A stretch of DNA of 64,000 nucleotides from a virus (IMGVR_UViG_3300037466_000352); one strand, 5' to 3'; numbered from the stretch's first letter, positions 8,303 to 64,000 are shown. Numbers and translations are program-made. Notes: generated by a model not told the origin, from the sequence alone.

Positions 8303-8809
8303 ATGCCCGAGAACGATGACGTAACGATTGCGCTTCTTCAACGGGACTACCAACAGACGGCCCAAATCGTGTCCAAGATGGACACTGCTATCGAGAAACT
8401 AACCGATCTTGGGACCGACATGAAGCAGATGTTGGCTCTTCACGATCAGCGAATTAACCGGCTTGAACAGATCGACAACGAAATTCATGGACTTGTTGAA
8501 AAACGTCGAACGGAACTACAAGACGACATCAAGGACTTGGATGGCAAATTGGCCTCAACTATCAAGGAAATCATCGGCGATCTTGCGAACGTCGAAACGC
8601 GAATCATGAAGGCGATTAGCGATGTGAAAGACGAAATCAAGAGCGACATCAAGACGGACAACGAAGAGCGCAACAAATCACACAACGATCTTGTCAAGCG
8701 GGTAGAGACGTTGGAGAAGTGGCGCTGGATGATGCTTGGTGGCGGCTTCGTCGTGGGCTTCATCATCGAGAAGGTCCTACCCCTCATCTTGCACGTGGCA
8801 ACAGGCTAA
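8303..8809 (+). CDS. Coiled-coil protein with a C-terminal transmembrane helix
   Basis: 168 aa. Heptad-rich, then WRWMMLGGGFVVGFIIEKVLPLIL. Confidence 0.55.
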   Translation: MPENDDVTIALLQRDYQQTAQIVSKMDTAIEKLTDLGTDMKQMLALHDQRINRLEQIDNEIHGLVEKRRTELQDDIKDLDGKLASTIKEIIGDLANVETRIMKAISDVKDEIKSDIKTDNEERNKSHNDLVKRVETLEKWRWMMLGGGFVVGFIIEKVLPLILHVATG

Positions 8810-8831
8810 CCCTATGTTGGGAAAACGCAAC

Positions 8832-8860
8832 AGGCGACTTCGGTCGCCTTTGTCGTTTCT
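8832..8860 (+). terminator. Rho-independent terminator
   Basis: AGGCGAC-TTCG-GTCGCCT followed by a T-rich tail. Confidence 0.7.
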
Positions 8861-8865
8861 AGGGC

Positions 8866-8894
8866 TTGCAAAATTCCCAAGGTTGTGAGATAAT
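8866..8894 (+). promoter_or_regulatory. Sigma70-type promoter (TTGCAA-N17-GATAAT) with an ATTCCCA spacer box
   Basis: TTGCAAAATTCCCAAGGTTGTGAGATAAT. Confidence 0.6.
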
Positions 8895-8920
8895 GCCGTT
8901 ACTGACCTAGCTCGACCCGC

Positions 8921-9256
8921 ATGAAAGTACATTCCATCTACCGCATCCTGAACCTTGTGAACGGGAAGTCGTACATTGGCTACACCAGTAAGCCGCCGAT
9001 CAAGCGGTGGTGGGACCATAAGGCGCAGATTCAGATAAACACCAAACAACGTCTGTACGCTGCTATACGTAAGTATGGCATAGACAACTTCCGCTTCGAT
9101 GTCCTGTATCAGTCGCTCGATGAATACCATGCACATCGTGTCATGGAACCCCACTTCATCCGAGAGTATGACACTTTCGGTAATAACGGGTACACACATT
9201 ACTACATCTGCGCACGTTTGAAAGACGGCAAAGACCAGAACATCTTTTATGTCTAG
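8921..9256 (+). CDS. GIY-YIG nuclease-domain protein (free-standing homing-endonuclease-like, catalytic domain only)
   Basis: 111 aa. SIYRILNLVNGKSYIGYT...RWWDH...E...N matches the GIY-YIG core. Confidence 0.6.
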   Translation: MKVHSIYRILNLVNGKSYIGYTSKPPIKRWWDHKAQIQINTKQRLYAAIRKYGIDNFRFDVLYQSLDEYHAHRVMEPHFIREYDTFGNNGYTHYYICARLKDGKDQNIFYV

Positions 9257-26968: not shown

Positions 26969-27696
26969 CGATCCTATCCCTCAAAGAGTTCAAGACCGGC
27001 CTCGAATACCACGACACGTTGAACCCGGCGCTTTGGAACGGCGACGAACTGAAGCCCGAAGTCTATGCGAAGTTGATGAACGTCGCGAACGACTTCATCG
27101 CTTTCTGTGGCATCGATCCGACCAAGGTGTCAGACATCGTAATGACAGGTAGTAGTGCGAACTACAACTACAGCCCGCAGTCCGACATCGACCTACATGT
27201 GATCGCGGTGTATGAACCCGATCACATGAACGAAGCGGGTATCAGTGTGCAGAATGCGTTCAATGCGTTCAAGACGCTGTACAACGAGTCGAGGCATATC
27301 TCGATCTATGGTTTCCCGTTGGAACTGTACGTGCAACCGACGAGCGAACACTTCACGTCCAACGCGGGCGTGTATTCACTAGAGAAAGAGTCATGGGTTC
27401 AGAGGCCAGTTAAGCAGCACGTCGATCTTGATGATCGAGAGATTGAACTGAAGGCCCAGGCAGTCATACACGAAATCAAACAGATCGTGCATGGCAAGAT
27501 GGCTGGCGTACTCGCAAGGCCAAGGATCGATGCTGTGAAAGCAAAGATTCGGCAATTGCGAGCGGCAGGATTGGAAGCCGGTGGTGAGTTCGGAATCGAG
27601 AACCTTGCGTTCAAGGCAATCCGAAATTCCGGCTATCTGGACAAGCTATCGAAATATGCGAGCGCAGTAAAGGATTCTACGCTGTCGCTTTCATGA
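26965..27696 (+). CDS. Pol-beta-superfamily nucleotidyltransferase-fold protein
   Basis: 243 aa. TGSSANYNYSPQSDIDLHVI (GS-x10-SDID) motif. Confidence 0.6.
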   Translation: MTILSLKEFKTGLEYHDTLNPALWNGDELKPEVYAKLMNVANDFIAFCGIDPTKVSDIVMTGSSANYNYSPQSDIDLHVIAVYEPDHMNEAGISVQNAFNAFKTLYNESRHISIYGFPLELYVQPTSEHFTSNAGVYSLEKESWVQRPVKQHVDLDDREIELKAQAVIHEIKQIVHGKMAGVLARPRIDAVKAKIRQLRAAGLEAGGEFGIENLAFKAIRNSGYLDKLSKYASAVKDSTLSLS

Positions 27697-28189
27697 GTTC
27701 ACTACGTTTTCCTTCGTAGTGAACAGGAACGTCATGGTGGTTCAACACAACTGCCATGCCTCTATTGACGTATCCGCTGTACCCATGATCGACCACGGCG
27801 CGTTCGAATGCGTTGCCGTGGTCTTCTCCGTTGTAGACGTGCTTCGCAGCCGTCTCACGAACTTCTTTGGCATGTTCCTGTGAAGCAGTATCCGGGTTGT
27901 ACATGTTGTGCAGCTTCGCGCTGTACGTGTGTTGCCCAAGTCCCGATTCGTGGACCTTCGATACCTTTTCGCCTTCGTTGGCGTGGTAGAAGTAGACACG
28001 ACTCTTGATGCGTGCGTCCTTCGTCTCCGACAGGCGTTTCGCTTCAGCACCCTTGATTCCCGTCCCATAAATCCGACCGTCGAGACTGGTCAACCCTTCC
28101 TTGTGCGAATAGTGCAGGCCGTGGATCGTCTCGCCCTTGACCGGCGCTGCGACCTCGCGCTCGGTGATGAACTGTTTGAATGATTGCAT
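27677..28189 (-). CDS. Hypothetical protein on the minus strand (putative late gene)
   Basis: 170 aa. Convergent with the NTase gene, overlapping it by about 20 nt. On the minus strand CTAAATAAT lies about 28 nt upstream of its ATG. Confidence 0.55.
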   Translation of the reverse strand: MQSFKQFITEREVAAPVKGETIHGLHYSHKEGLTSLDGRIYGTGIKGAEAKRLSETKDARIKSRVYFYHANEGEKVSKVHESGLGQHTYSAKLHNMYNPDTASQEHAKEVRETAAKHVYNGEDHGNAFERAVVDHGYSGYVNRGMAVVLNHHDVPVHYEGKRSELMKATA

Positions 28190-52607: not shown

Positions 52608-53120
52608 ATGTCCTACTCCCTTTCACAAGCTGGCGCACAACTGATCGGTCAGTTCGAAGGTCTTCGGTTGACCGCGTACTATGACTCGGTAGGCGTCCTC
52701 ACCATTGGCTACGGCACGACGAATGCGGTTCTTCCGCAGTCGATGAAGTTCGGCCCCGGCACGACAATCACACAAGCCCAAGCAGTAGAGTACCTTATGT
52801 ACGGCGTGAACAATGTGTTCGCACCGAAGGTAAATGCTTTGGTCAAAGTGCCTCTCACGCAAAACGAATTCGATTCGCTGGTGTCCTTCGCGTATAACGT
52901 TGGTTCTGGCAATCTCGCATCCTCAACTTTGCTTCGTCTGTTGAACGCGGGCCAGTACGGCGCTGCGCAGAAGCAATTCCTTGTCTGGAACAAGGCCGGT
53001 GGTGTCGCGATGCGTGGATTGACGAACCGTCGCCTCGGAGAAGCCGCGAACTTCGGTCCCCTAACACGTCAGCAACTAATCGACCAGTGCTTGAACGGCG
53101 TCGATCCCGCAAACCCATAA
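52608..53120 (+). CDS. Endolysin, GH24 (T4 lysozyme-like) muramidase
   Basis: 170 aa. EGLRLTAYYDSVGVLTIGYGTT (catalytic E, D, T region). Confidence 0.85.
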   Translation: MSYSLSQAGAQLIGQFEGLRLTAYYDSVGVLTIGYGTTNAVLPQSMKFGPGTTITQAQAVEYLMYGVNNVFAPKVNALVKVPLTQNEFDSLVSFAYNVGSGNLASSTLLRLLNAGQYGAAQKQFLVWNKAGGVAMRGLTNRRLGEAANFGPLTRQQLIDQCLNGVDPANP

Positions 53121-56849: not shown

Positions 56850-57344
56850 ATGCTTTCATTCAAAGAATTCCTGCAAGAGAAGTACGGTACGACCGGAACC
56901 TATGCAGCCCTGAAGTTCGATCAACCGTCCACGGATGACATCGAAGCTTATCAGGCACACAACAAGATTCCGAACCCGGTCCCAGCGGACAAGCTACACG
57001 TAACATTGCTGTATTCGCGTAGACACATGGCCGGGTTCAAACCGCGCGGGCGACTAGAATCGCTCATAAAGGCTCGCGTCGCCGGGTTCGATGTCTGGGA
57101 TACCCAAGACGGAAAGAAGGCACTGGTGGCCCGTTTGGACGCCCCGGAACTCGTTGCACGCCATCGCGAACTGATGGACAAGTACAACGGGACTTACGAT
57201 TTCCCAGAATACAAGCCGCACACCACGTTGTCATATGATGTCGGCCCAGATTTCGATCACCAGAACCTTCCTCCATTTGGTCCTGTCCTCACGCTCGACA
57301 ACGAGTTCGGTGAAGACCTCGACCTCGATTGGAAGGCTGATTGA
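56850..57344 (+). CDS. 2H phosphoesterase-superfamily protein (LigT / 2',3'-cyclic phosphodiesterase-like)
   Basis: Two H-x-T-x motifs (HVTLLY and HTTLSY) about 80 aa apart. Confidence 0.65.
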   Translation: MLSFKEFLQEKYGTTGTYAALKFDQPSTDDIEAYQAHNKIPNPVPADKLHVTLLYSRRHMAGFKPRGRLESLIKARVAGFDVWDTQDGKKALVARLDAPELVARHRELMDKYNGTYDFPEYKPHTTLSYDVGPDFDHQNLPPFGPVLTLDNEFGEDLDLDWKAD

Positions 57345-58939: not shown

Positions 58940-59036
58940 TAGTACAACTCTTTGAGATTTTCCTTCATGAAGACCATACACGTCGAAACATACGTTTCAC
59001 AAATCAAAACACACGTAGACATAGGTAGAAATACAA

Positions 59037-60029
59037 ATGGCAAAGTCCCTCTCGGAAATGCGCAAGTCGCGCGGCAACTTCGAACAACTTACCAAAGAAA
59101 TCGAGAAGCAAGGTAAGAAGAACTACGACAAAGAAGATGACCGCTTCTGGCAGTGCGCAGTAGACAAAGCTGGCAACGGCCAAGCTGTCGTCCGATTCCT
59201 GCCCGCCCCGCAAGGCGAAGACCTTCCGTTCGTCCGTATGTGGTCGCACGGTTTCCAAGGTCCGACTGGCAAGTGGTATATCGAAAACTCGCGTACCACG
59301 CTTGGTGAAAGCGATCCGGTAACGGAACTGAACAACGAACTCTGGGCCTCGAAGGTCAAAGAGAACGAAGAAATCGCTCGCAAACAAAAGCGCAAGCTGT
59401 CCTACTACAGCAACGTGCTTATCATCTCTGATCCGGCCAACCCGGAAAACGAAGGTCAAGTGAAGATTTTCCGCTACGGCGCGAAGATTTTCGAGAAGCT
59501 TGAAGCAGCAATGAAGCCGGAATTCGATGACGATCCGACCTTCAACCCGTTTGACTTCTGGGACGGTGCGAACTTCCGCCTGAAGATCACGAAGAAAGAT
59601 GGTTTCGCGAACTTCGACAAGTCCTCGCTCGCAGAGTCGAAGCCCCTGTCGGATGACGACGAAGAACTGCAAAAGATTTGGGACAAGTGTCACTCACTTG
59701 CAGCGATTGTCGCACCGGATCAGTTCAAGAGCTACGACGATCTGAAGAAGCGCCTGAACTTCGTCCTCGCAACTGGCGCACCCGGCAAGAATGCCGAACA
59801 GTCGGAAATCGATCAAGACGACGAAGCATTCATCCGTCAGCAATCACGTTCGACCGCTGACCGCCTGAAGAAAGAAACCAAGGACGCACCGAACGCAGAG
59901 CAATTCGATGACGTTCCACCGTTCGATACGGAAAAGCCGAAGACGACCGCTGCGAAGTCCACGGCCAAGAAGGTCGAAGAAGAAGCAGACGACGACCTCG
60001 AATACTTCCGAAAGCTTGCTGGTGAGTAA
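59037..60029 (+). CDS. Single-stranded DNA-binding protein (T4 gp32 homologue)
   Basis: 330 aa. KAGNGQAVVRFLPAP...GKWYIE matches the gp32 core. Acidic C-terminal tail. Confidence 0.9.
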   Translation: MAKSLSEMRKSRGNFEQLTKEIEKQGKKNYDKEDDRFWQCAVDKAGNGQAVVRFLPAPQGEDLPFVRMWSHGFQGPTGKWYIENSRTTLGESDPVTELNNELWASKVKENEEIARKQKRKLSYYSNVLIISDPANPENEGQVKIFRYGAKIFEKLEAAMKPEFDDDPTFNPFDFWDGANFRLKITKKDGFANFDKSSLAESKPLSDDDEELQKIWDKCHSLAAIVAPDQFKSYDDLKKRLNFVLATGAPGKNAEQSEIDQDDEAFIRQQSRSTADRLKKETKDAPNAEQFDDVPPFDTEKPKTTAAKSTAKKVEEEADDDLEYFRKLAGE

Positions 60030-60088
60030 TCAACAGGTACAGCCTACGGGCTGTATTTGACAGATACAAATCATAAGCTGTAAAACAC

Positions 60089-60113
60089 AAAAGCCCGCGA
60101 AAGCGGGCTTTTT
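60089..60113. terminator. Bidirectional Rho-independent terminator between convergent gene 32 and the minus-strand operon
   Basis: AAAAGCCCGC-GAAA-GCGGGCTTTTT with T/A runs on both sides. Confidence 0.85.
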
Positions 60114-60123
60114 CTTTGGTGCT

Positions 60124-62040
60124 TTAGAACAGCACCGTATTCATCATCTGCCTGTCGAAGTAGGATTCGCGGGCGCGTGGTTCGGCTTTCACCGGCACTA
60201 CCTTTGGACCCGATTGTTGTGGCTGTGAGATGTTCTGTTGAACCACAACCTTCGGCGCGTCGTGATTCGCGCTATGGTTCGCAACTTGCTGTACGTCATG
60301 TGTCGGTGCTGGCTTCACATCGACCTTGCCATGTGGGCCGCCCATCCATTCCGGCATCCACGACTTATCGATCTTGTTCCAGTTCTCATAGACACCATCT
60401 GCGGCCCCAGCAATACCGCCCACAGCACCGCCGACCATCGTCCCTACACCCGGAATGAACGAACCGACTGCGGCCCCCGTAGCGCCCCAATCTGCCGCTT
60501 TACGTGCGACATCTGCACCGATGGCTAGTTGGTCATGCCCGGTCTTCTCAAGTTCGTCGTGTGCGTATCCGAGTCCCTTGTCTGCTGCGTATCCAACGAG
60601 CGCCGCTGCACCGCCCTTCAGTAGTCCCTTTCCAAGACCCTTCCCTAACTTCGCAAGCTTCGAAAGTGAACGCACGCCCTTCTTTGCACCAAACAAGGCA
60701 GGCAGAAGGCTTGTCGCATCACCGATTACTTCGGATGTTATCGACGAATCGGAACCTTCTTTTGCTGCTGCGTCACCTTGCGGATTGTCATCGATCTTCA
60801 ACGTAGGATCGGCTGACCGAGGACCCACGTCGTTATCAGGAAGGTCCGACTTCGGCTTGAACGCATCCGTGATAGTTGGCTTCGGTACGAACGTCGGATA
60901 CACATCAACCGCACCACGAACTGCCGATGCAATCGGCGATTCTTGCGTCTTCAGTGGCGCATGTGGATTGCGCGGTTTAACCTTGATCGGCGATTCGACT
61001 TCACGATGTTCAACGTCTTGTACAGCGAGTTCCTTGTGCGCGATCTTCGGTGCAGGAAGAAGATGCGGTTCGTGATACTCAAGCGCCTTCTGGTCAAGCG
61101 GTACGTGTGGCTTTGGATCAACTAGCGCACCTGTCGGGCCATGCGGACCCGGCAACTGTGGATGCAACTCTGCGCCAGACGATGAAGGTCCAGGCAACTC
61201 TGGATTGATCGGAACTGCACTGCGACCTTTCGGACCATCGAGACGATCTTGCATGTATCGCGGCGGCTGTTCGTCTTCGGCCTTCTTGACCATCTTCACG
61301 ATCAAGTTTTCGACATGAAGGTTCTCGATCTTCGATGGGAATCCACCCGAACCCTTTCCTTCACCCGAACCGCCCGCGATCTGTGATGCCATCGCGTTTG
61401 CTTTGTCCTTCTCTGCTTCGCCCGTGATCTGTTCACCCGCCTCTCGAATCAGCTTTTCGGCAGTGCCTTGGTTCTGTAGTTCGTGAAGCGGATTCAGTAC
61501 ACCCGCACCGTTCTTTTCAAGACCCGCCAGCTTTCTGAACAAAGGGCTTTCAAGATCGTCTTGTGTCGGCTTGAAGAACTTGGCTGCACGTTGCGAGAAC
61601 TCTTGACGAAGAACACCGCCTTTCTTCTTTGCATTCGGATCGGTGTGCTTCATTCCGATAGATGCAAGATGTTCCAGTTCTCCCTTGGCAGGATGGTCGC
61701 CATCGATTTCGTTCAGGCGAACGACGGCTGCTTTGAATTCCTTGTGAAGTGCATCAAAGTCCTTGGCGTCGGCGCGACGAAGCTTGTAGAAGTTCTCCGT
61801 GATACCACGGAACACTTCACGTTGTTCATCGGTGGCCGTCTTCATCCATTCTTCTTGATCCTTCACCGAGTCAGTGAATTGACGATACGCTTCGTCGATC
61901 TGCTGAACGAATTTGTCATCCTTGCCGTTATTCTTCGACACCTGATTGCGACGAAGCAACGCTCCGATCTTCCCGATGTAGGCATTCATGTCCTCATTCG
62001 AGATTCGAGATGTCTGTAATGATGGTTGCATCGCCGCCAT
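60124..62040 (-). CDS. Large hypothetical protein (638 aa) with a Pro-rich linker and a C-terminal glycine-zipper segment
   Basis: Long minus-strand ORF. GxxxG repeats in GVGTMVGGAVGGIAGAADG. The N-terminal half is helical. Confidence 0.65.
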   Translation of the reverse strand: MAAMQPSLQTSRISNEDMNAYIGKIGALLRRNQVSKNNGKDDKFVQQIDEAYRQFTDSVKDQEEWMKTATDEQREVFRGITENFYKLRRADAKDFDALHKEFKAAVVRLNEIDGDHPAKGELEHLASIGMKHTDPNAKKKGGVLRQEFSQRAAKFFKPTQDDLESPLFRKLAGLEKNGAGVLNPLHELQNQGTAEKLIREAGEQITGEAEKDKANAMASQIAGGSGEGKGSGGFPSKIENLHVENLIVKMVKKAEDEQPPRYMQDRLDGPKGRSAVPINPELPGPSSSGAELHPQLPGPHGPTGALVDPKPHVPLDQKALEYHEPHLLPAPKIAHKELAVQDVEHREVESPIKVKPRNPHAPLKTQESPIASAVRGAVDVYPTFVPKPTITDAFKPKSDLPDNDVGPRSADPTLKIDDNPQGDAAAKEGSDSSITSEVIGDATSLLPALFGAKKGVRSLSKLAKLGKGLGKGLLKGGAAALVGYAADKGLGYAHDELEKTGHDQLAIGADVARKAADWGATGAAVGSFIPGVGTMVGGAVGGIAGAADGVYENWNKIDKSWMPEWMGGPHGKVDVKPAPTHDVQQVANHSANHDAPKVVVQQNISQPQQSGPKVVPVKAEPRARESYFDRQMMNTVLF

Positions 62041-62051
62041 TTAGATAACCT

Positions 62052-62249
62052 TTATGTGTGTTGCTGTTGCTTACGGAGAAGTTCGTTTCGTTCTGCCTCT
62101 TCTCGAATGTGTTGGACAAGCTGACCGACGTAAATTTCTCGCTCCCACGGCAACATCTCGTCCAATTCGGTCAACGAATATTTATGGAACTGGACGAGAC
62201 TGAAGTTCAACTTGTAGTAGTTGAACAAACTGTCATGTGAGAGCATCAC
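62052..62249 (-). CDS. Hypothetical protein
   Basis: 65 aa. Overlaps the upstream gene's stop (ATGA on the minus strand). Confidence 0.45.
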   Translation of the reverse strand: MMLSHDSLFNYYKLNFSLVQFHKYSLTELDEMLPWEREIYVGQLVQHIREEAERNELLRKQQQHT

Positions 62250-62944
62250 CCGAAAAAAGCTTCGATGCCTTCCAGTGTGTATTGTGTATCTTTCTCACAG
62301 TGCGGGCACTTGTCAGTGAACGTATGCTTCAACACCGGCATAGTTGCGAAGAAGTTCTCGATCTGTTCGAACTGCTGCGATGTTAGTGATTCAAGGAAAG
62401 CCCGAACTTCTTCGAGTGGTTCGTCCTTGGTCGGGTGAACTTCTTCGTCAGTGAAAACAGTCTTGATGCACTTCATGATTGTTTCGTAGACCGTCTCGAC
62501 GCTATAGTTCTTGTTCAGATAATCGAGTTGTTCCGTTGTTGGATATTCCATCTCTACACCGAGATTGTCTGCCAACATGATCTTCGTGCTATGTCCATCT
62601 GTCTTGATAACTTTGACATCGGGAAGCTGAAGTCGATAATCGTGCTGCTGTTCACAGTGCCCACAAGTCAGAACCAAGTCAACCGATTCCCCAACTGATC
62701 GAATGCGAATCTGCATGAACATGTATTCAAGGTCGAAGTTCGGCAAACTCTCGATGTCAAGCTTTCCGAATGAACACGTATCGACCACATTACGGACAGA
62801 CAACAGGATGTCCGCGTCGTTGCTCTGAAGTGCCATCAAGAGCGTCTTCTGTTCTCCGACCAACCAGGGACGACACTTGATCTTTTTCCCGGTGGATGGC
62901 AGTGTCAGTTCAAAGATAGGGTAGTTGTTGCGTGGCAGAGCCAT
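62246..62944 (-). CDS. Hypothetical protein with two CxxC pairs (zinc-ribbon); putative late gene
   Basis: 232 aa. CGHC...CPHC. The minus-strand CTAAATAG motif lies about 27 nt upstream of its ATG. Confidence 0.6.
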   Translation of the reverse strand: MALPRNNYPIFELTLPSTGKKIKCRPWLVGEQKTLLMALQSNDADILLSVRNVVDTCSFGKLDIESLPNFDLEYMFMQIRIRSVGESVDLVLTCGHCEQQHDYRLQLPDVKVIKTDGHSTKIMLADNLGVEMEYPTTEQLDYLNKNYSVETVYETIMKCIKTVFTDEEVHPTKDEPLEEVRAFLESLTSQQFEQIENFFATMPVLKHTFTDKCPHCEKDTQYTLEGIEAFFG

Positions 62945-62964
62945 GAAATAGTCCTCAGTGATGA

Positions 62965-63008
62965 TCGACTATTTAGTTGTTGACACGCATTCCCAACCTT
63001 GGTAATAT
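62965..63008. promoter_or_regulatory. Divergent region: minus-strand CTAAATAG late-type motif (62969-62976) and + strand conserved promoter TTGACA-N17-TAATAT (62980-63008)
   Basis: GTTGACACGCATTCCCAACCTTGGTAATAT, followed by CATCGACA and RBS aggagg. Confidence 0.6.
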
Positions 63009-63036
63009 CTTGTTCATCGACACAGGAGGACGCACC

Positions 63037-63333
63037 ATGAACCATCAACAAGCACTCGATCTGGCAATCGACAACAACATCGAAGTCTCGGTGGATCGCG
63101 AAATGCGCGACTGCACGGCGATGCGCCGCATCCTCTCGACGGAATTCAAGGTTGGCGGCTTCCTTCTTGTCCGGGCACGCGGTCAGAACAAATGGTCTAT
63201 TACGTCACCCACTGGCGGCACGTACTGTCACGTGTCGGGTCCGTTGCAAGGCAAGACGATTCTTCTGCCTCGCGGCGATGCAATGAAGTACGCTATCGAC
63301 CTGATCCTTGAACAACGTGCAGCACAACAGTAA
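63037..63333 (+). CDS. Hypothetical protein
   Basis: Trimmed to ATG 63037 (MNHQQALD...) with RBS aggagg. Confidence 0.55.
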   Translation: MNHQQALDLAIDNNIEVSVDREMRDCTAMRRILSTEFKVGGFLLVRARGQNKWSITSPTGGTYCHVSGPLQGKTILLPRGDAMKYAIDLILEQRAAQQ

Positions 63334-63343
63334 GGGGACCGTC

Positions 63344-63634
63344 ATGGACATCAAGGAACTGAAGGCTGCACTGGCCTCGAAGGGTTGGACTGAAGATGCT
63401 TACGGGCACATGAAGAAGGAACTGAAGGTCCAGACCGCAGAGAAGGACGACATGCGTCTGTATCGCGTCAAGATTCAAAAACTATCGGTGAGATTGGAAC
63501 GCCAGTACACCATCGAAGCGACGCAGTATTCACCCGCACACAAGGAATGGACCAAGGTCGATTCGTGCTACCTGAAGGATATCAAGGTACGCGAAGACGG
63601 CTGCATTTTCATCGGCAAGAAAGGAATCAAATGA
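63344..63634 (+). CDS. Hypothetical protein
   Basis: Trimmed to ATG 63344 (MDIKELKAAL...) with RBS aagggga. Confidence 0.5.
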   Translation: MDIKELKAALASKGWTEDAYGHMKKELKVQTAEKDDMRLYRVKIQKLSVRLERQYTIEATQYSPAHKEWTKVDSCYLKDIKVREDGCIFIGKKGIK

Positions 63635-63843
63635 AGTACGAAAAGCTCGCAACGGACCTGATGTTCAGTAAGGTCGCAACGGCAGAACTAGCACCCGTCT
63701 ATGGACTTCAATTCCGCAAGGGAAAGACGGCCGATGACATCGCCAATGCCATCAAGAAAGCCAAGAAGAACGGCCACGCAAAGGTCGAATTCGAACTCTC
63801 TATGCTCGAAGTCTACCTAAAGAAATTGCTGAAGAAGGCTTGA
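63631..63843 (+). CDS. Hypothetical basic protein
   Basis: Trimmed to ATG 63631 (ATGA overlap), 70 aa. Confidence 0.45.
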   Translation: MKYEKLATDLMFSKVATAELAPVYGLQFRKGKTADDIANAIKKAKKNGHAKVEFELSMLEVYLKKLLKKA

Positions 63844-63869
63844 CGAATCACCTTCCAAGTCTGTATGAT
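63840..63869 (+). promoter_or_regulatory. Promoter TTGACG-N18-TATGAT with a CCTTCCAAGTCTG box and the conserved leader CATCGACAACAACTTTGGGAGTG
   Basis: The leader is identical over about 23 nt to the one at 47885-47908. Confidence 0.55.
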
Positions 63870-63902
63870 CTTGAACATCGACAACAACTTTGGGAGTGAA
63901 AC

Positions 63903-64000
63903 ATGGACTTCAAGACGAACGTGCGGGACTTCATGCCACATCTCGAAACGCAGGTGATCGAGTTCCAATTACACTTCCCGGTGCAGAACTTCGCAAATAT
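63903..64000 (+). CDS. 5' part of a gene that continues beyond the window
   Basis: ATG 63903 after RBS gggagtg. Open to the window end. Confidence 0.4.
   Translation, partial: MDFKTNVRDFMPHLETQVIEFQLHFPVQNFAN

Follow-up and report, generated by a model that had tools for sequence, protein, structure and literature searches.

The 64,000-nucleotide (nt) stretch analysed here (the window), from the virus IMGVR_UViG_3300037466_000352, derives from a T4-like phage, and its minus-strand block at 60124-62944 is an ordinary late tail-assembly operon of that uncultured phage. As judged from sequence, the first product, of 232 amino acids (aa), is a gp26-type baseplate hub protein that serves as the short tail assembly chaperone (TAC-N). 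A 65-aa Gp51_C frame follows in the -1 reading frame and is likely joined to it by ribosomal frameshifting, and the 638-aa product of the last gene is probably the tail tape measure protein. We favour this combined reading, of a late operon encoding a frameshifted chaperone pair and a tape measure, with reasonable confidence. The original prediction, which had been made without database searches, described the block as a late-type operon for a zinc-ribbon protein and a glycine-zipper, proline-rich protein that might be an ejected virion protein or a membrane-active effector. The features of the block, in window coordinates, are:

62976-62969, minus strand: late-promoter-like motif CTAAATAG, T4-type, heading the operon
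62952-62956, minus strand: Shine-Dalgarno sequence GAGGA, 7 nt 5' of the gp26 ATG
62246-62944, minus strand: gp26-type gene, 232 aa
62258-62252, minus strand: slippery heptamer T_TTT_TTC in the gp26 frame, 3 nt before the stop
62052-62249, minus strand: 65-aa Gp51_C reading frame, shifted by -1 against the gp26 frame
60124-62040, minus strand: 638-aa gene, starting 11 nt past the gp51-C stop
60721-61275, minus strand: proline-rich central third of the 638-aa protein (residues ~256-440), predicted disordered and holding the conserved motif PIKVKPRNPHAPLKTQESPIASAVRGAV
60394-60486, minus strand: glycine-zipper / hydrophobic segment FIPGVGTMVGGAVGGIAGAADG (residues 519-549)
60127-60183, minus strand: C-terminal motif P-R-x-R-E-S-Y-F-D-R-Q-M-M (residues ~620-638)
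60089-60112, both strands: bidirectional intrinsic terminator AAAAGCCCGCGAAAGCGGGCTTTT, common to the block and the convergent gene 32

The minus-strand block is a late operon of three reading frames

Nearly all genes of the window lie on the plus strand. Codon-usage scoring and the gene calls of a matching 172.8-kb metagenomic contig, SRR35106392_106749, agree that 60124-62944 is the sole multi-gene minus-strand unit, as had been predicted. Both open reading frames of the original prediction, of 638 and 232 aa, were recovered, but its count of two genes fell short, as the Gp51_C frame and the heptamer had been overlooked; the block holds three reading frames in the order gp26, Gp51_C and the 638-aa gene. 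The predicted convergence with gene 32 was borne out as well. Gene 32 occupies 59037-60029 (Pfam gp32, E 5e-45), and the terminator shared by the two units is a hairpin with a perfect 10-bp stem containing six G-C pairs, a 4-nt loop and T-runs on both strands.

The consensus of T4 late promoters is TATAAATA. The motif CTAAATAG that the original prediction placed at the head of the operon is present, although the distance from its end to the gp26 ATG at 62944, with GAGGA in between, measures 24 nt and not 27 nt. We found that CTAAATA occurs 10 times in the window versus 1.9 expected, an approximately fivefold excess not attained in any of 100 shuffles; the 22-kb locus L003 has 7 copies versus 0.54 expected. 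The sites in the window include 1686, 6076, 52575 and 62976, and CTAAATA lies ~25-31 nt 5' of several start codons, such as that of the lysozyme gene at 52608. Just outside the window, a back-to-back pair (L003 1762, plus; 1786, minus) fronts gp48-like and gp2 operons. CTAAATA is probably the late-promoter core of this lineage, and a homologue of the late-transcription co-activator gp33 (PF16805) is also encoded in the window. The description of the block as a late-type operon is supported by the over-representation of CTAAATA and by the structural content of the block.

Elsewhere in the window, a minus-strand singleton gene at 27677-28189 (170 aa, good codon usage) has CTAAATA at 28221-28215, 25 nt 5' of its ATG. 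Its product matched no Pfam or PHROG family, and the gene looks like an isolated late gene amid plus-strand early genes.

The first gene encodes a gp26-type chaperone

The 232-aa protein matches the Pfam family T4_baseplate (PF12322; E 1.6e-58, 198 bits versus a cut-off of 24.5) and phrog_150 (E 1.3e-65). PF12322 is matched as well by T4 gp26 and by residues 1-201 of T4 gp51 (E 3.9e-52), its N-terminal part, and the 232-aa protein aligns with both gp26 and the N-terminal 200 residues of gp51. Eight loci with highly diverged gp26 proteins were compared: the window, L007, the metagenomic loci L009 and L010, the cyanophages S-PM2 and S-RIM44, the Pelagibacter phage HTVC008M and the Delftia phage PhiW-14. 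Within the cultured phages of this set, gp26 is 24-43% identical to the window protein.

The double CxxC noted in the original prediction is real (CGHC and CPHC), and the protein that carries it is the gp26 chaperone. The four cysteines are found in the window, L007, L009, L010 and T4 gp26, and the cyanophage and pelagiphage proteins do not have them; the zinc ribbon thus varies from member to member and does not define the family, and the 'zinc-ribbon protein' label missed the mark.

The chaperone gene is predicted to be extended by a -1 frameshift

The 65-aa frame matches phrog_634, 'baseplate hub assembly catalyst' (E 1.9e-24), and PF28602 (Gp51_C) is recorded for its called product. T4 gp51 consists of a T4_baseplate domain followed by a C-terminal tail that is homologous to this frame. 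From these matches, a fusion of gp26 and Gp51_C would apparently be the long chaperone form, TAC-NC, built like T4 gp51. We regard the assignment of this gp26/gp51 pair as tail assembly chaperones as very likely to be correct.

The 3' end of the gp26 gene reads GCT TTT TTC GGG TGA. The T_TTT_TTC within it fits the canonical X_XXY_YYZ pattern of -1 slippery sites, and the Gp51_C frame is open from the heptamer onward. Slippage there would yield a fusion of 297 aa and ~34 kDa with the predicted junction peptide …EAFFRVMLSHDSLFNYYK. The fusions predicted across the loci are 295-316 aa long and colinear with T4 gp51 end to end, through the junction, and T4 gp26 stops at the equivalent Phe-Phe.

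The signal is conserved. In each of the eight loci gp26 closes with TTTTTTC or TTTTTTT, set 0-3 nt ahead of the stop codon, and the wobble base preceding the TTT of the heptamer is T in every one, although the residue encoded there can be A, S, D or N. Where the next gene is adjacent, in 6/8 loci, no stop interrupts the -1 frame between the heptamer and that gene, and the -1 peptide FFR(V/I)xLSHDxLxNYY...LTELxxMxPWEREIYV is kept in 8/8. The codons used are rare in this genome (TTT, 16% of Phe codons; GCT, 14% of Ala codons), and 17 genes hold 23 Phe-Phe pairs, no other of which is spelled T-TTT-TTC. A Shine-Dalgarno-like GGAAGG lies ~9 nt 5' of the heptamer, with GGAGGG in several other loci and GGTAGG in L009 as the exception; its conservation is confounded by that of the Leu-Glu-Gly codons that form it. 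Such an element upstream of a slippery heptamer recalls dnaX.

Two observations count against frameshifting. First, the 65-aa frame owns an ATG at 62246 that overlaps the gp26 stop (TGATG), so that its product could arise by re-initiation without any frameshift. Second, the window offers little RNA structure past the heptamer, with a weak hairpin ~25 nt 3' of it (z -1.3). In S-PM2 a strong hairpin of 14 bp, GTTCTATAATAAT...ATTATTATAGAAC (L001 6705-6790, z -4.6), begins ~10 nt past the heptamer, a spacing suited to a frameshift stimulator; the hairpin of the window is weaker and differently placed by comparison, and is formed by homologous codons.

These points could be taken to mean that gp26 and the 65-aa Gp51_C protein are made only separately, by termination and re-initiation at TGATG, with the T-run a by-product of the conserved Phe-Phe. 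The ATG also overlaps the gp26 stop in L007 and PhiW-14 and starts 2 nt after it in S-PM2 and S-RIM44, and gene callers give a separate 64-aa product. In HTVC008M, L009 and L010, however, no start codon is present where the conserved -1 peptide begins, and in the latter two the peptide is not called as a gene at all. Also against separate translation are the invariant T before TTT TTY at a variable amino acid, the rare TTT and GCT codons and the match of the fusion to T4 gp51 through the junction, and we consider it improbable. As judged from sequence, actual -1 frameshifting in this phage is likely; the ATG that the 65-aa frame possesses at the gp26 stop keeps our confidence short of certainty.

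The arrangement differs from that of T4 in how the two forms are encoded. T4 uses separate, divergently transcribed genes 26 and 51, whereas in the window a single gene and a -1 frame entered at T_TTT_TTC would supply both; the T4_baseplate domain and the Gp51_C tail that distinguishes the long form from the short are common to the two. Phage lambda provides a parallel in arrangement, with no kinship in sequence expected: a short chaperone, a -1 extension and a long protein follow one another, with the heptamer near the end of the short form. The lambda heptamer is G GGA AAG and that of the window U UUU UUC, and the window phage is a myovirus with a T4-type baseplate. In lambda, a -1 frameshift reportedly produces the G/GT chaperone pair, and the tape measure gene H comes directly after it, a result attributed to Xu, Hendrix and Duda in 2004.

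Short and long chaperone pairs in T4-like phages are already published and are not new biology. As cited in two later articles (PMC10885494, PMC12846349), Vladimirov, Gautam and Davidson (2022, Virology 566:9-15) describe short and long TAC forms in T4-like phages, poly-T slippery sequences in the TAC-N genes, and some T4-like phages that carry the two forms as separate genes.

In public annotations Gp51_C stands as a gene of its own, for a 'baseplate hub assembly catalyst' of 45-59 aa, in HTVC008M (gp022; L005 6753-6890), S-PM2 (L001 6720-6893) and S-RIM44 (L002 5920-6099). The annotated start of HTVC008M gp022 drops ~20 conserved residues that are reachable only via a -1 frameshift. In L010, a GIY-YIG homing-endonuclease-like gene (8650-9222) lies on the opposite strand directly after the gp26/Gp51_C cassette.

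The 638-aa protein is probably the tail tape measure

We identify the 638-aa protein as the probable tape measure, or tail-length determinator, because of its position after Gp51_C, the proteins that hold the same slot in relatives, a shared glycine zipper, its size and layout, and the literature. Classically, the genes for tail assembly chaperones come immediately before the gene for the tape measure that they serve, as G/GT come before H in lambda. The order gp26, gp51-like gene, 638-aa homologue and convergent gp32 is kept in relatives down to E 1e-16.

Further afield, the slot after gp26 and Gp51_C, with the same heptamer, is occupied by HTVC008M gp020 and by the cyanophage proteins S-PM2 p209 and S-RIM44 gp011 (phrog_5453). 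HTVC008M gp020, of 687 aa, is annotated 'putative tail tape measure' and matches seven PHROG tape-measure families (E 1e-9 to 1e-12); an extra 110-aa gene, absent from the window, separates it from the chaperone frames. The S-PM2 and S-RIM44 proteins, of 1167 and 855 aa, have a PGVGT glycine zipper and partial matches to tape-measure families, and differ from the 638-aa protein in carrying a lysozyme-like domain. The PGVGT...GG zipper of the 638-aa family aligns with that of S-RIM44 gp011 (hhalign probability 90%). The zipper was the only signal between these two proteins, and none was found between the 638-aa protein and S-PM2 p209 or HTVC008M gp020. When the best 60 outside proteins with the glycine-zipper module were collected, 52/60 matched phrog_1047 (tail-associated lysin) and 46/60 phrog_794 (tape measure).

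In length the protein is near HTVC008M gp020 and T4 gp29 (590 aa), and like gp29 (PF25671, phrog_1283) it is the product of a late gene in a hub/chaperone neighbourhood. Its layout largely follows the original prediction. The N-terminal ~250 residues are predicted helical by AlphaFold2, a proline-rich spacer and a glycine segment follow, and the tail is polar; the 'PxLPGP repeats' of that prediction amount to two copies, PELPGP and PQLPGP. In the AlphaFold2 model the helical parts are residues 15-255 and 477-552, residues ~256-440 have a predicted local distance difference test (pLDDT) score below 50, and the mean pLDDT is 48, with confidence confined to the N-terminal helices. The hydropathy maximum, 1.4, falls on GVGTMVGGAVGGIAGAADG at residues 531-549. 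From a reading of sequence, gp29 too has an N-terminal region, a proline-rich linker and a hydrophobic segment. It differs in that the proline-rich part of the 638-aa protein runs to ~185 residues, its hydrophobic part is a glycine zipper and not a classical transmembrane helix, and in T4 gp27 and gp28 intervene between genes 51 and 29.

Two published observations also fit a tape-measure identity. In a survey of pelagimyophages and cyanomyophages, the tape measures were not identifiable by homology (PMC7029224), and glycine zippers overlapping transmembrane segments have been noted in tape measure proteins; these segments are thought to enter the host membrane, and the tape measure proteins to form or nucleate the DNA channel (PMC10240207).

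A number of results weigh against the tape-measure assignment. Comparison with tape-measure profiles gave weak zipper matches in PHROGs and nothing from gp29 or Pfam domains. The hhalign probability for the 638-aa family (alignments A1 and A4) against T4 gp29, taken as a single sequence and as a 16-sequence profile, was 0.3-0.6%, and the protein matched neither PF25671 nor phrog_1283. With no detectable homology, it is at best an analogue of gp29 and not a member of its family. No Pfam tape-measure domain, such as PF10145 (PhageMin_Tail), matched at E up to 0.1, the NCBIfam search returned nothing, and the best result of a sequence-profile search of the PDB was an OmpA glycine-zipper match at E 0.69. 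A tblastn search of 50,697 phage records with the protein was empty. The PHROG tape-measure links are weak and run via the glycine-rich segment only (phrog_23574, E 4.9e-5), and they are poor evidence of common descent because that segment is glycine-rich and of low complexity. About a third of the protein is proline-rich and predicted disordered, which is atypical of the mostly helical tape measures. PhiW-14 has a terminator, and no tape measure, after its gp26/Gp51_C pair, so the adjacency of chaperone and tape measure is not universal. Finally, the neighbourhood scan described below leaves ~150 kb of the 172.8-kb genome where another tape measure could sit. Two further searches were negative: megablast of 59000-64000 against the same phage records found nothing, and Foldseek of the AlphaFold2 model against the PDB gave no match below E 0.7, a result that is uninformative.

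On the strength of such points, the 638-aa protein could instead be a hub-associated, ejected membrane-penetration or channel protein that does not measure length, the real tape measure lying elsewhere in the genome. Its want of homology to gp29 or tape-measure domains, a disordered proline-rich centre unlike a helical ruler, the PhiW-14 pair without an adjoining tape measure, and the occurrence of the zipper module in tail-associated lysins and endolysin-annotated families would all fit. Against this, the HTVC008M and cyanophage proteins in the same slot do match tape-measure families, the length is near that of gp29, chaperones classically precede their client directly, and no second tape-measure candidate was found within 10 kb either side in four contigs. 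We regard the channel-protein explanation as unlikely and retain the tape measure as the probable identity.

The 638-aa proteins form a metagenomic family with a conserved C-terminus

Searches recovered 14 full-length homologues of the 638-aa protein, all metagenomic and several on contigs of 168-177 kb. The distant members P0018, P0019, P0021, P0022, P0030 and P0034 were added by exhaustive profile search. Members are 620-750 aa long, with the variation falling in proline-rich and Lys/Glu-rich linkers. Conserved elements are the helical N-terminal ~250 residues, the motif FPSKIENLHVENLIVK, PIKVKPRNPHAPLKTxETPxASAVRGAV inside the proline-rich centre, the zipper PGVGT...GG...GG, and a near-invariant C-terminal PRxRESYFDRQMM, in which the columns R622, R624, E625, S626, Y627, F628, D629 and M632 are invariant across 14 sequences. 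Five of the distant relatives (P0018, P0019, P0021, P0030 and P0034) have no glycine zipper. Since all five retain the N-terminal domain and the C-terminal motif, the zipper is not part of the core of the family.

In L009 (9697-10008) and L010 (9307-9636), a further gene, for a hydrophobic protein of 103-109 aa, separates the chaperone from the big gene. These small proteins are 33% identical to each other and weakly resemble GTA_holin_3TM, and the big-gene products of these two distant lineages (P0034, P0019) are among those without a zipper. The small protein could be supplying the membrane function in trans, in the two cases known here.

As far as sequence can tell, the 638-aa family is a new, metagenome-only candidate tape measure family of one T4-like lineage, and the novelty is limited to that. 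A bolder proposal, which we put forward only tentatively, is that it founds a tape-measure family unrelated to gp29 whose ruler, about one third proline-rich and probably extended, has a mixed helical and polyproline-like geometry, with a membrane protein acting in trans in L009 and L010. If so, tail length would be set by a mixed-geometry ruler, and the length variation within the family would fall in its linkers.

The glycine zipper is unlikely to mark a toxin

The original prediction had likened the tandem GxxxG motifs to those of membrane-inserting toxin or pore domains. They are present, and a glycine zipper mediates membrane translocation of the type VI secretion system (T6SS) effector Tde1, in which, as in Burkholderia prophage tape measures, tandem GxxxG motifs overlap a hydrophobic segment (PMC10240207). 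The 638-aa protein itself matches Pfam Gly-zipper_Omp (PF13488) below threshold (18.4 versus 25 bits, E 0.0021), and its homologue P0002 has a precomputed PF13488 match. This might be read as the mark of a toxin or pore-forming effector built on a glycine zipper, or of an internal head protein that travels with the DNA. Searches of Pfam, PHROGs, NCBIfam and the PDB turned up no toxin or enzymatic domain, however. The gene sits in a baseplate and tail-assembly operon and not among head genes, five family members keep the core without the zipper, and the article on Tde1 (PMC10240207) itself reports the motif in tape measure proteins. The weak PHROG matches of the segment are to tape-measure, tail-lysin, endolysin and unnamed families, and the proteins that share the module belong overwhelmingly to tape-measure and tail-lysin families. 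A toxin or head protein is accordingly highly improbable, and the effector framing lacks specific support. The broader claim, that the product is a virion or ejected membrane-active protein and not a replication protein, pointed in the right direction, in that a tape measure is a virion protein expelled from the tail.

Three narrower identities were considered for the 638-aa protein and dropped. The label SlyB-like lipoprotein, given to P0011 by the JGI, is explained by the glycine zipper; a gp27/gp5-type hub or spike had no matching domain in any library; and an internal head protein would be in the wrong gene neighbourhood.

Proposed mechanism

We propose that the operon would be transcribed late from CTAAATA as one transcript, terminating at the hairpin that it has in common with gene 32. 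Most ribosomes on the first cistron would make gp26, the short chaperone, while a fraction would slip -1 at U UUU UUC and produce a minor, ~297-aa gp26-Gp51_C long chaperone. In analogy to G/GT-H of lambda and gp26/gp51-gp29 of T4, the two chaperone forms would coat or hold the 638-aa protein, as the putative ruler, while the tail tube polymerises around it. Its invariant C-terminal peptide may dock in the baseplate hub, the orientation that we propose for the protein in the tail. On infection, the 638-aa protein would be expelled from the tube, and its glycine zipper may then enter the host inner membrane and help to open a path for the DNA.

What had appeared to be a toxin and zinc-ribbon oddity becomes, under this assignment, a standard tail-assembly module. 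Annotation routinely misses the tape measures of T4-like phages that do not belong to the T4 subfamily, and the conserved gp26/Gp51_C frameshift cassette could be used as an anchor for locating them in thousands of marine and freshwater myovirus genomes. It could also correct annotations of the 'baseplate hub' and 'hypothetical 60-aa' kind.

Other genes in and near the window

On the plus strand at 56850-57344 (L003 14697-15191), a gene between the gp33-like co-activator and gp59-like genes encodes a 164-aa product with PF23474 (Acb1), a family of cyclic-nucleotide phosphodiesterases directed against the cyclic-oligonucleotide-based antiphage signalling system (anti-CBASS). In two diverged contigs (L003 1796-2248 and L007 3603-4058), a gene with a Tn7 TnsA-like endonuclease N-domain heads the late operon of gp2 and tail-tube-like genes.

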